Source: Salegentibacter sp. Hel_I_6 (GTDB lineage Bacteria; Bacteroidota; Bacteroidia; Flavobacteriales; Flavobacteriaceae). From it: 32,000 nucleotides of DNA. The notes under the pieces were generated by a model. That model searched no databases, had not been told where the DNA came from, and was given only the letters and a program-made list of their open reading frames with translations. The DNA is taken from assembly GCF_000745315.1 (NCBI RefSeq), contig NZ_JQNQ01000001.1, positions 3,135,127-3,167,126 of the forward strand. Direction: 5' to 3'. The position numbers and the translations under genes are program-made. This document shows, piece after piece, positions 3,210 to 6,571 of this stretch (within the stretch, counting starts at the first letter, position 1; the number at the start of each line of letters is the position of its first letter).

Positions 3210-3233
3210 GATTTCCGCCTACGCGGAAATGAC
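3210..3233 (-). repeat. GTCAT-type hairpin element (minus strand gtcatttccgcgtaggcggaaatc)
   Basis: Perfect 8-bp stem atttccgc/gcggaaat. 23/24 identical to 5779-5802. Abuts the trpG stop codon. Confidence 0.8.
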
Positions 3234-3953: not shown

Positions 3954-5348
3954 TTATATATCTTCAGCGATATCCAATGCCTTGGTTAGCGCCCCTAGTT
4001 TATTGTAAACTTCCTGTAATTCGTTTTCTTCTACAGATTCTGAAACAACACCTGCGCCGGCTTGATAATGTAATTGATGATCTTTACTTACAAAAGATCT
4101 AATGATAATGGCGTGGTTAAAATTTCCGTGGAAATCCATAAACCCTATTGCCCCGCCGTAGGCATCACGATTTACATTTTCGTATTTTTCTATCAGCTTC
4201 ATCGCACTATGCTTAGGCGCGCCGCTTAAAGTTCCCGCCGGAAAAGTATCTGCTACCACCTGCATTGTAGGTGTTTTTGGATCTTTGGTGCCGGTAACTT
4301 TGCTTACTAAATGGATCACGTGGGAGAAAAACTGGATTTCTCTATATTTTTCCACTTTTACATTATTACCGTGTCGGCTTAAGTCGTTACGAGCCAGATC
4401 AACCAACATTACATGTTCGGCATTTTCCTTTTCATCGGCGGCAAGTTTTTTGGCTAGTTCAGCGTCTTCCTCATCATTTCCGGTACGTTTAAAAGTTCCG
4501 GCTATTGGATGGATTTCTGCCTGCCCGTCCTGAACCACCAGTTGGGCTTCAGGCGAACTTCCAAATATTTTAAAGTTTCCGTAGTCAAAATAGAAAAGGT
4601 AGGGCGAAGGATTTACGCTGCGTAAAGCGCGGTAAACATTGAATTCATCTCCCTTGAATTTCTGAGAAAATCTGCGCGAAAGCACAATTTGAAAAACGTC
4701 ACCACGATAGCAGTGCTTTTTCCCTAGGCTTACATTTTCCCTGAATTCTTCGTCGGTGAGGTTAGAAATTGGTTCCTGCTGACGTTCAAAATTATAGGTC
4801 GCGAAATTTTTGACTTTTATCAGTTGCTCGATTTCAGCGATCTTTGAATCGGTATCATAGCTATGATCAAAAATATAAGCTTCATTATTAAAATGATTTA
4901 TGGCGATAATATTTTGATAAACCGCGTAATAAATATCCGGAAGTTTAAGATCACCATTTCGTTTTTTAATCTCTAAATCTTCAAAATACCGAACTCCGTC
5001 ATAAGCGATATAGCCAAAGAGTCCGTTATTGATAAATTTAAAATCAGAATCTTCAGTTTGGAATTGTTTTGAAAATTCCTGGATTTGCTGGGGCACGTTA
5101 ACTCCAGGAGTGATCTCTGTTGTTTTTTTACTTCCGTCAGGAAAAACTTCGGTAATCACTTCGTTTTGAATCTTAATAGAAGCGATAGGATTACAGCATA
5201 TATACGAGAAACTATTGTCGTTGGCGTGATAGTCACTACTTTCCAGCAAGAGACTGTTAGGATATTTGTCCCGAACTTTTAAATAAACACTCACCGGTGT
5301 AATGGTATCTGCTAGGAGTTTTTTATGGGTGGTTTTTAGTTGGTACAT
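3954..5348 (-). CDS. trpE: anthranilate synthase component I
   Basis: 464 aa with LLESS near the N-terminus and C-terminal chorismate-binding motifs (GTLSGAPK, YGGAIGF, AGAGVV). First biosynthetic gene of the operon. Confidence 0.92.
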   Translation of the reverse strand: MYQLKTTHKKLLADTITPVSVYLKVRDKYPNSLLLESSDYHANDNSFSYICCNPIASIKIQNEVITEVFPDGSKKTTEITPGVNVPQQIQEFSKQFQTEDSDFKFINNGLFGYIAYDGVRYFEDLEIKKRNGDLKLPDIYYAVYQNIIAINHFNNEAYIFDHSYDTDSKIAEIEQLIKVKNFATYNFERQQEPISNLTDEEFRENVSLGKKHCYRGDVFQIVLSRRFSQKFKGDEFNVYRALRSVNPSPYLFYFDYGNFKIFGSSPEAQLVVQDGQAEIHPIAGTFKRTGNDEEDAELAKKLAADEKENAEHVMLVDLARNDLSRHGNNVKVEKYREIQFFSHVIHLVSKVTGTKDPKTPTMQVVADTFPAGTLSGAPKHSAMKLIEKYENVNRDAYGGAIGFMDFHGNFNHAIIIRSFVSKDHQLHYQAGAGVVSESVEENELQEVYNKLGALTKALDIAEDI

Positions 5349-5408: not shown

Positions 5409-5705
5409 TTATTTAAATCTTACAGTCAAATCTTCCCAATCGGGGTTGAAATCGTTTATCAGATTTATTTTCCAGAGTCGATTCCATTTTTTAAGTTGTT
5501 TTTCCCTTTTAATCGCCAACGACGGATATTCGAATTTTTCATAATATACTAGTTTATTAAGTCGGTATCTACTGCTAAAACTTTTTAGGTTTCGATTTCT
5601 ATGTTGATATAATCTTTGTTTCAGGTTTCTTGTAATCCCAATATATAGTGTTCCATATTTACGATTTGTAATGATGTAAACGTAATATTGGTAGTCTGTA
5701 TTCAT
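5409..5705 (-). CDS. small GIY-YIG (URI-domain) nuclease family protein
   Basis: 98 aa. YVYIITNRKYGTLYIGITRNLKQRLYQH gives the GIY...YIG pair followed by a conserved Arg. Size and layout match stand-alone COG2827-type proteins. Confidence 0.85.
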   Translation of the reverse strand: MNTDYQYYVYIITNRKYGTLYIGITRNLKQRLYQHRNRNLKSFSSRYRLNKLVYYEKFEYPSLAIKREKQLKKWNRLWKINLINDFNPDWEDLTVRFK

Positions 5706-5716
5706 AATTTATTTCA

Positions 5717-5760
5717 GTCACTCTCTTAAAAATGGGAGTCTTTTTTAATATCGTATTTCT
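5717..5760. repeat. right copy of the direct repeat flanking the GIY-YIG gene
   Basis: gtcactctcttaaaaatgggagtcttttttaatatcgtatttct. See 5362-5401. Confidence 0.6.
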
Positions 5761-5778
5761 CAATTCTGTGTTTTTTGA

Positions 5779-5802
5779 GATTTCCGCCTTCGCGGAAATG
5801 AC
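5779..5802 (-). repeat. GTCAT-type hairpin element (minus strand gtcatttccgcgaaggcggaaatc)
   Basis: Perfect 8-bp stem. Differs from 3210-3233 by one nucleotide in the loop. Confidence 0.8.
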
Positions 5803-5814
5803 AGAAAACTTCAT

Positions 5815-5845
5815 AAAAAAAGGCTTGTCGTGAGACAAGCCTTTT
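5815..5845 (-). terminator. intrinsic terminator of the trp attenuator
   Basis: Minus strand reads AAAAGGCUUGUC-UCAC-GACAAGCC followed by seven U. The stem 5818-5829/5834-5845 is a perfect 12 bp (8-bp GC-rich core). It lies 29 nt after the leader stop codon. Confidence 0.8.
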
Positions 5846-5874
5846 GTATGAGATTATACTATAGCGATGTTACT

Positions 5875-5931
5875 TCACGACGTTTGACGTAAATTTTTCC
5901 ACCACCAGGTATTTGCTGTAATTGTTTTCAT
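5875..5931 (-). CDS. trpL: trp operon leader peptide, 18 aa, MKTITANTWWWKNLRQTS
   Basis: My reading of the minus strand: ATG 5931-5929, three consecutive TGG codons at 5907-5899, TGA at 5877-5875. Too short for the ORF track. An in-frame upstream ATG at 5964-5962 would give 29 aa (MKANNWHLLYFMKT...) with a fourth Trp. Confidence 0.75.
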   Translation of the reverse strand: MKTITANTWWWKNLRQTS

Positions 5932-5969
5932 AAAATATAATAAATGCCAATTATTGGCTTTCATTGCTT

Positions 5970-6000
5970 CAAAGATAGAAAGCTCTTTTAAATAAACAAG
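5970..6000 (-). promoter_or_regulatory. candidate promoter of the trp leader transcript
   Basis: Minus strand carries TAtcTTTG (5977-5970), matching the Bacteroidetes -7 consensus TAnnTTTG. A partial -33 element cTTG (6000-5997) lies 19 nt upstream. Confidence 0.4.
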
Positions 6001-6010
6001 TCGATTTTAT

Positions 6011-6049
6011 AAAAAGAAAAGCCGGAAAAGTAAATTTAACTTTTCCGGC
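6011..6049 (-). terminator. intrinsic terminator downstream of the yceI pair
   Basis: Stem gccggaaaag (6021-6030) pairs with cttttccggc (6040-6049). On the minus strand it is followed by UUUUCUUUUU. Confidence 0.75.
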
Positions 6050-6070
6050 TGGAATTGTGCAATCTAATTA

Positions 6071-6571
6071 TTAGAATTTCAACTCAATATTTAAATCGAA
6101 ATTATCGTAAATCGTTTGATCTCCAAGTCCGCTGAAAAAGCTACCGGAATTGTATTTCACGTTATATTTAGAACGATCTATTGTTAATTTGGTAGTAGCA
6201 GTATTATTGTTGTAATCTAAATCGAAAGTTACCGGATGAGTGTTTTCTTTAATTGTTAGATCTCCAACCACACCATAAGTGCCATCATCTTTTTTGGCTA
6301 CGCTGGTAATTACCAGTTTGGAAGTTGGATGGTTATCTACTCCAAAGAAATCATCTGAATTTAAGTGACCTTCCAATCCTGCTTTATCGTCTCCTTTAAG
6401 ATCTGTTACAGTAATTGTGGTCATATCCATTACAAATTCGCCACCTACTATTTCATCGTTTTCAAACTTGAATTTCCCATCTTTTAGATCGATGGTTCCT
6501 GAGTGTGATCCTAAAACTTTCTTTCCTTTCCAGGCGATATTACTGGCCTGGGTATTTATTTGTTTTTCCAT
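6071..6571 (-). CDS. YceI-like polyisoprenoid-binding protein, no signal peptide
   Basis: 166 aa, collinear with and highly similar to ORF 6620-7198 (DDFFGV, KLVITSVAKK, GVVGDLTIKE, LTIDRSKYNV, ELKF) but lacking its N-terminal hydrophobic leader. Confidence 0.85.
   Translation of the reverse strand: MEKQINTQASNIAWKGKKVLGSHSGTIDLKDGKFKFENDEIVGGEFVMDMTTITVTDLKGDDKAGLEGHLNSDDFFGVDNHPTSKLVITSVAKKDDGTYGVVGDLTIKENTHPVTFDLDYNNNTATTKLTIDRSKYNVKYNSGSFFSGLGDQTIYDNFDLNIELKF

Follow-up and report, generated by a model that had tools for sequence, protein, structure and literature searches.

A Bacteroid-trp (RF01692) leader with the anatomy of a ribosome-mediated attenuator upstream of the trp operon of Salegentibacter sp. 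Hel_I_6

The trp operon and its inserted cassette

The window analyzed here, a stretch of 32,000 nucleotides from Salegentibacter sp. Hel_I_6, contains a tryptophan biosynthesis operon whose genes, like the other features of this DNA described below, lie on the minus strand. Pfam matches identify trpE (5348–3954), trpG (3799–3233), trpD (3159–2152), trpC (1989–1177), and trpF (1118–471); trpB starts downstream of trpF and runs off the window, its N-terminus being recognizable in the translation of 1–480. TrpE is 99% identical to the TrpE of Salegentibacter salarius DSM 23401. The operon is preceded by a short leader with a putative promoter, a mini-ORF, and an intrinsic terminator. The next gene upstream (6571–6071) belongs to the YceI family by Pfam and ends with its own terminator at 6050–6020; the leader is therefore taken to be an independent transcription unit. 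Farther upstream on the same strand are a YceI-like tandem paralogue (7198–6620; the Pfam check covered the 6571–6071 copy), a 210-aa ORF (7865–7233), and a MarR-family regulator (8344–7868). Together, the genes from 8344 to 6071 look like an ordinary stress-type cluster that is unrelated to the attenuator.

An earlier, sequence-only reading of this DNA had placed the attenuator in front of the Trp biosynthesis genes, on the same strand as trpE and pointing toward it. Strand and direction are as described, but the two are not immediate neighbors: a 98-aa GIY-YIG ORF (5705–5409; Pfam PF01541, E = 3.8e-17) intervenes before the trpE start codon at 5348. This ORF is part of an inserted cassette (5809–5364) that also includes one hairpin upstream (5809–5770) and another downstream (5383–5366) of the gene, and 467 nt separate the terminator from the trpE start codon. 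Measured from leader ATG to trpE ATG, the distance is 583 nt in the window and 527–588 nt in loci L001–L004, against 128–145 nt in most relatives. At this position, between attenuator and trpE, L007 and L009 have no insert, and L008 and L005 retain the hairpins only; in two Flagellimonas species, the site is filled by GIY-YIG homologues with 63–67% identity. In L007 and L008, a GIY-YIG gene is found downstream of trpE inside the operon, apparently between trpG and trpD, and in L045 and L046 it lies further downstream. The gene and its hairpins suggest a small mobile cassette, one that may settle in operon spacers. Counted together, the cassette or its homologues occur in L001–L004, L062, L073, L007, L008, L045, and L046, and their orientation is always that of the operon. 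Neither a strict −7 box nor a predicted terminator was found in the cassette on the operon strand, and co-transcription of the GIY-YIG ORF under attenuator control is the simplest reading.

G+C-rich hairpins are also present in each trp spacer (3229–3208, 3177–3158, 3865–3850, and 331–305), and the one at 3229–3208 is approximately a copy of the hairpin to the left of the GIY-YIG gene (TTTCCGCGNAGGCGGAAATCT). No Rfam family matched these; the hairpins that flank the cassette likewise matched none, Flavo-1 included. The spacer hairpins are possibly repeat elements, or signals for RNA processing or stability.

The presence of the cassette raises the question of whether the leader still governs the genes behind it. 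An intact attenuator could be bypassed if the cassette brought its own promoter, in which case trp expression would be independent of the leader. With the cassette, the spacing between terminator and trpE grows by about 440 nt, and homologues at other trp intergenic sites (L007, L008, L045, and L046) make it appear mobile; it contains a near-consensus box (TACGTTTA) at 5684, and a non-consensus promoter inside the insert could likewise skip the attenuator. However, the near-match at 5684 falls within the GIY-YIG ORF, and a strict TAnnTTTG is absent from the minus strand between 5969 and 5340. The cassette, moreover, is inserted in the orientation of the operon and without a predicted terminator, and the leader, promoter, and terminator hardly differ from their counterparts in insert-free relatives, which suggests continued selection. 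A bypass of this kind is unlikely in our judgment, and we favor the reading in which the operon remains under the control of its leader.

Promoter, reading frame, and terminator of the leader

The leader belongs to a catalogued RNA family. It matches RF01692, Bacteroid-trp ("Bacteroidete tryptophan peptide leader RNA"), scoring 68.3 bits where the gathering threshold is 49; the match spans positions 1–131 of the 131 in the model and 5951–5834 of the window, and it is the single Rfam hit at that threshold in the whole window. Of 20 relatives sampled, 16 also pass the gathering score. The traits of the family are readily recognized: the short ORF, of 18 or 29 codons, contains three UGG codons where at least two are expected, and, as befits a family positioned ahead of trpE or trpB, trpE (5348–3954) lies downstream on the same strand in a Bacteroidetes host, with the GIY-YIG ORF intervening. 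The enterobacterial Trp_leader family gave no match, either in the whole window at the gathering score or in 5700–6100 at E ≤ 1, and no riboswitch or T-box family matched the leader region in the Rfam scans. Bacteroid-trp was predicted in silico, and attenuation was proposed for it, in the account of Weinberg et al. (2010; PMC2864571). A study of F. psychrophilum mapped the leader upstream of trpE-pabA-trpDCFBA and described condition-specific read-through over the hisG, pheA, and trpE operons together, with a peak of expression in minimal media. A genetic or biochemical test of the family was not found in our literature searches. The family has been catalogued (as RF01692) since 2010, and the element is, by virtue of this membership, an ordinary one, with nothing new to claim for its identity.

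The putative promoter is of the Bacteroidetes −33/−7 type. A −7 box of the form TAtcTTTG (TATCTTTG; consensus TAnnTTTG) is located at 5977–5970, where the sequence-only reading had put it, and it is the sole strict TAnnTTTG on the minus strand within 6070–5340. A TTG at 5997..5999, 19 nt upstream of the box, is a putative −33-like element of a Bacteroidetes sigma-A promoter, and a TTG or TTTG stands at the same spacing from the −7 box in nearly all loci printed. All 78 loci having enough sequence show a strict TAnnTTTG box upstream of the leader, and in 50 of these the first in-frame ATG follows exactly 5 nt past the box. The TAnnTTTG box has been placed at −12 to −5 (PMC9723704); an ATG 5 nt beyond it would therefore leave about 1 nt as the predicted 5′ UTR, so that most relatives may have a nearly leaderless leader mRNA. 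The F. psychrophilum leader is not near-leaderless: as read from its sequence, the mapped RNA has a TTTG at its 5′ end, and the AUG follows after about 16 nt. Bacteroidetes are not known to use Shine–Dalgarno-led initiation, a point against the mechanism proposed below, which assumes that a near-leaderless leader ORF is tightly coupled to the polymerase.

The leader ORF (5964–5875) has two in-frame starts. On the minus-strand reading of 5500–6300, the shorter version is an 18-codon mini-ORF that runs from ATG 5931–5929 to TGA 5877–5875 (ATG AAA ACA ATT ACA GCA AAT ACC TGG TGG TGG AAA AAT TTA CGT CAA ACG TCG TGA) and encodes MKTITANTWWWKNLRQTS. Its three tandem Trp codons (UGG UGG UGG, TGGTGGTGG), the proposed sensing site, occupy 5907–5899; mini-ORF and codons alike had been given these exact coordinates in the sequence-only reading. 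TGGTGGTGG occurs once on both strands of the 32-kb window, with 0.03 occurrences expected. The other start (ATG 5964–5962), which had also been pointed out, is indeed present 33 nt upstream of ATG 5931 and would yield a 29-aa peptide (MKANNWHLLYFMKTITANTWWWKNLRQTS). It stands 5 nt past the −7 box, at the site where most relatives start their leader. A locus alignment shows that the two ATGs are separated by a 33-nt in-frame insertion common to the window and L001–L003. In S. salarius (L001), the first ATG is replaced by ATA, so the second ATG must serve there. The insertion (5961–5920) also brings a small hairpin (GCCAATAATTGGC, 5958–5946), an isolated fourth Trp codon, and the second start at 5931.

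To assess conservation, 80 trpE loci were sampled from species of Flavobacteriaceae. A WW(W) mini-ORF precedes trpE in 79 of them, reading WWW except for one with WW; in the 80th, the contig end leaves only 136 nt upstream of trpE. Across the alignment of 78 sequences, the Trp-codon columns 25–30 are invariant and columns 31–33 nearly so. Every locus examined has an in-frame ATG and a frame that is open as far as the UGG codons, and the codons between vary freely. Both elements whose conservation the sequence-only reading had proposed to trace in such an alignment are therefore present throughout this sample: the mini-ORF in 79 of 80 loci, and the terminator in 78 of 78 aligned.

The terminator (5845–5815) begins 29 nt after the stop codon. 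Its 5′ arm (AAAAGGCTTGTC, 5845–5834), loop TCAC (5833–5830), and 3′ arm (GACAAGCCTTTT, 5829–5818), followed by TTTAT, form a stem of 12 perfect base pairs whose position, loop, and spacing had all been read correctly from the sequence. A repeat finder returns the arms as a 12-nt inverted repeat with 100% complementarity, and RNAfold assigns the hairpin −17.1 kcal/mol. The count of seven trailing U that had been attached to this stem does not stand beside it, since four of the U7 (5821–5815) lie inside the stem; the terminator is best described either as an 8-bp G+C core followed by U7 or as a 12-bp stem followed by U3. Pairing is kept in 98.1% of cells over the 78 aligned leaders, with compensatory changes (both sides altered) in 4 of 11 pairs; the loop is conserved, and extra loop bases are added on its 5′ side only. 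A consensus terminator scan did not list this hairpin at 5845–5815, the strongest terminator of the region, probably because A–U pairs draw the U run into the stem. Not being listed by the scan does not count against a terminator, and folding and pair counts were used instead. The terminator sequence, including the loop UCAC, is almost frozen over many genera (alignment columns 101–128), which is unusual for intrinsic terminators; the likely reason is that the arms and loop must also fit the antiterminator.

Default hairpin, switch strand, and antiterminator

The 161-nt leader RNA folds to −44.7 kcal/mol (z = −5.6), and none of 200 shuffles was as stable. In the MFE fold, region 1 (5912–5888), which comprises AUAC, UGGUGGUG (5907–5900), and UUUACG (5893–5888), is the 5′ strand of a default, or anti-antiterminator, hairpin. 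Its partner is the switch strand, region 2 (5881–5856), which contributes CGUGAA (5879–5874), CAUCGCUA (5869–5862), and GUAU (5859–5856). UGGUGGUG pairs with CAUCGCUA and UUUACG with CGUGAA, and the UGG run is thus paired. Over the 78 sequences, 84% of the cells of this hairpin are paired; pair 40–60 covaries, being C–G in 45 sequences and U–A in 16.

A paired UGG run would also suit a leader whose mini-ORF is untranslated, with the RNA acting as a TRAP-like or riboswitch-like target of a protein or ligand and the UGG repeats serving a structural role. It is consistent with such a view that the original authors, in their supplementary text, gave the structure of the motif merely as a loosely conserved hairpin (Weinberg et al., 2010; PMC2864571). 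However, every locus examined retains an ATG in frame with the UGG codons and no stop between them, although the intervening codons are free to vary, and the −7 box and this ATG are a fixed 5 nt apart in 50 of 78 loci. No riboswitch or T-box match was obtained for the region. We consider an untranslated leader barely credible, and read the mini-ORF as a translated one in which the Trp codons do the sensing.

A second question is whether that sensing would be exerted through the RNA or through the peptide. With 2 exceptions among the loci scanned, the motif UCGUGA is found 26–28 nt (mostly 27) past the first UGG, and it is read, depending on the locus, as TS-stop, as VVK, or beyond an earlier stop. 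Its retention across differing frames and stops argues for a constraint on RNA rather than on the peptide. It is conceivable that the nascent peptide ...WWWxNLRQTS is itself the sensor and arrests the ribosome as TnaC does: the residues after WWW are strongly conserved, reading N-L-R-Q-T/N-S in most of the 79 peptides, and E. coli TrpL ends in RTS, similar to the C-terminal RQTS here. However, CUUACG and UCGUGA are kept in spite of another frame or stop (TS-stop, NVVK-stop, or RR-stop before the motif), and their nucleotides form the helix with the covarying pair. The peptide tails of distant family members, furthermore, are unrelated while the RNA pairing persists. Arrest by the peptide is thus very improbable, and the alternative pairings of the leader RNA are more plausibly what its codons control.

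These pairings center on the same motif. GUCGUGA (5881–5875) is complementary to UCACGAC (5833–5827), and the sequence-only reading had noted this complementarity as a weak candidate. That estimate has to be reversed, as the pairing is the conserved core of the antiterminator, invariant in Flavobacteriaceae and kept with other sequences in distant relatives. The antiterminator partner of region 2 is region 3 (5841–5827), which consists of GGCUUGUC from the 5′ arm of the terminator, the loop UCAC, and GAC of the 3′ arm. In the 78 leaders, the core (G)UCGUGA:UCACGA(C) is 93% paired yet invariant, and shows no covariation within Flavobacteriaceae. A stalled-ribosome fold, in which the first 19 nt from UGG1 were masked and the transcript was cut after UCACGAC, has as its MFE structure a composite antiterminator at −12.7 kcal/mol (z = −2.3; 6 of 200 shuffles were as stable). 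GUCGUGA 5881–5875:UCACGAC 5833–5827 is joined in this structure by G5873:C5834 and by the inner pairs ACA 5870–5868:UGU 5837–5835 and GCU 5865–5863:GGC 5841–5839. The inner partners of the terminator arm vary among the 78 loci, nearly all of which share the architecture. Folding of the minus-strand RNA, which the sequence-only reading had put forward as a check, does yield a mutually exclusive terminator and antiterminator, the latter on the masked and cut transcript.

Equilibrium folds of the full leader with ribosome footprints masked retained the terminator every time and did not separate the two states. Because the terminator wins at equilibrium under any footprint, antitermination would have to be kinetic. 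Another 2:3 pairing, GUGAGCU:GGCUUGU, had been picked out by eye; it needs four G–U pairs, is absent from the window, and was dropped.

Pair counts within Flavobacteriaceae are uninformative for the antiterminator core, both of its strands being invariant, and the flanked seed alignment of the 2010 Weinberg paper was therefore used as a source of divergent leaders from other orders. In these distant members, a segment 24–37 nt past the first UGG again finds its partner in the terminator loop and the adjoining 3′-arm bases, through sequences other than those of Flavobacteriaceae. Leader segment GUCGUAAG faces terminator segment CUUACGAC in the B. vulgatus type and CUUGCGGC, with two G–U pairs, in the Parabacteroides type; the corresponding leader and terminator segments are GUCGAU and AUCGAC in a marine metagenome, GCCGU and ACGGC in NZ_AAPD01000009, CGUGAAC and GUUCACG in Cytophaga hutchinsonii, GUGAGAU and AUCUCAC in NZ_AAOG01000004, and GGAAGU and AUUUCC in NZ_AAXU01000004. 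Independent folding of cut transcripts recovered the loop helix in 9 of 10 lineages, and comparable loop pairing arose in 0.7–15% of shuffles per sequence when the intervening sequence was shuffled. The B. thetaiotaomicron-type seed sequence showed no loop pairing; its switch strand pairs with the 5′ arm of the terminator instead. The peptide tails of these distant members are unrelated, and the RNA pairing is kept. It is this persistence with different sequences at a distance that marks GUCGUGA:UCACGAC as the conserved core of the antiterminator.

Proposed mechanism and relation to known attenuators

With high probability, this member of Bacteroid-trp (RF01692) attenuates transcription of the trp operon in a ribosome-mediated manner. 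The trpL-like attenuation proposed in the sequence-only reading is supported in silico: ORF, default hairpin, terminator, and antiterminator are all present and conserved. The anatomy, the family membership, the conservation of every part, and the covariation within helices are matters of direct observation, and from them we infer a response to tryptophan that would run through a kinetic competition between folds. Transcription would start just downstream of the −7 box (5977–5970), and a ribosome would translate the leader ORF close behind the polymerase. With plentiful charged tRNA-Trp, the ribosome would clear the three UGG codons, reach the UGA at 5877–5875, and cover the switch strand (GUCGUGA and the next bases); the placement of the stop codon fits this model, since a terminating ribosome sits on the switch strand. 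If no ribosome were present, the switch strand would be held by the UGG codons and UUUACG in the default hairpin. Under either condition, the terminator (5845–5815) would form and transcription would stop before the GIY-YIG ORF and trpE. Scarcity of charged tRNA-Trp, by the same logic, would lead to a stall on UGG2 or UGG3 with a footprint reaching roughly to UUUACG, and 5881–5863 would be freed. The freed strand could then pair with 5841–5827 of the emerging terminator, which comprises 5′-arm sequence, the loop, and GAC of the 3′ arm. Once 5841–5827 were captured, the terminator would be blocked, and the polymerase would read into the GIY-YIG gene and trpEGDCFB.

Comparison with other Bacteroid-trp leaders shows a largely shared design: tandem UGG codons in a short ORF, a hairpin that holds them, a conserved AAAGGCUUGUC terminator arm, and a position upstream of trpE. 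The member from F. psychrophilum encodes MNTFLNNTWWWNNLRQTS from an almost identical RNA. The copy in the window and its closest Salegentibacter relatives differ in carrying the 33-nt in-frame insertion with a second start, and the GIY-YIG cassette between terminator and trpE. The RF01692 model itself ends at the 5′ arm of the terminator, and the antiterminator pairing with the loop and 3′ arm lies outside it.

The likeness to E. coli trpL is one of logic. Both leaders have four regions, with Trp codons in region 1 and alternative 2:3 and 3:4 hairpins; in both, the stop codon is placed such that a terminating ribosome covers region 2, and the terminator is more stable than the antiterminator. 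Antitermination in E. coli is also kinetic, the terminator being favored at equilibrium. Unlike trpL, the leader described here has three Trp codons rather than two, its antiterminator extends beyond the 5′ arm of the terminator across the loop and into the beginning of the 3′ arm, and it is associated with a Bacteroidetes −33/−7 promoter, no Shine–Dalgarno sequence, and, in most relatives, an AUG about 1 nt from the predicted start. The element would work like E. coli trpL without homology to it, RF01692 being the sole match in the Rfam scans.

Leader-peptide attenuation is likewise found outside Proteobacteria in Actinobacteria, where some leader ORFs are leaderless or nearly so; the polycysteine short ORFs of mycobacteria, for example, are leaderless short-ORF attenuators. 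The sequences and the phylum are unrelated to those considered here, and the comparison of near-leaderless states takes that of the present leaders from promoter–AUG spacing alone. Attenuators of trp genes are on record in Corynebacterium glutamicum and Streptomyces venezuelae (cited in PMC4833913).

As to annotation, the Salegentibacter trp operon can be described as carrying a standard Bacteroidetes Trp leader. What novelty remains lies in the details, which merit a note and are presented with no claim of discovery: a loop-engaging antiterminator, a near-leaderless start, and a GIY-YIG insert, none of which is described for the family in the papers found. That all three hold together (an antiterminator that captures the terminator loop together with the first 3′-arm bases, a leader that is near-leaderless in most Flavobacteriaceae, and a mobile GIY-YIG gene inside a regulated Salegentibacter transcript) is a tentative proposition, to which we assign slightly less than an even chance.

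The UGG codons, UCGUGA, and the loop, together with compensating changes, offer concrete targets for mutation in a family that has apparently only been predicted and seen in transcriptomes. If correct, the loop-pairing antiterminator would account for the conservation of a terminator loop across a bacterial family. The cassette, for its part, presents a case in which a small GIY-YIG element appears to move among the intergenic spacers of one operon; and in Salegentibacter, if the proposed reading is true, tryptophan starvation would turn on a selfish nuclease gene.
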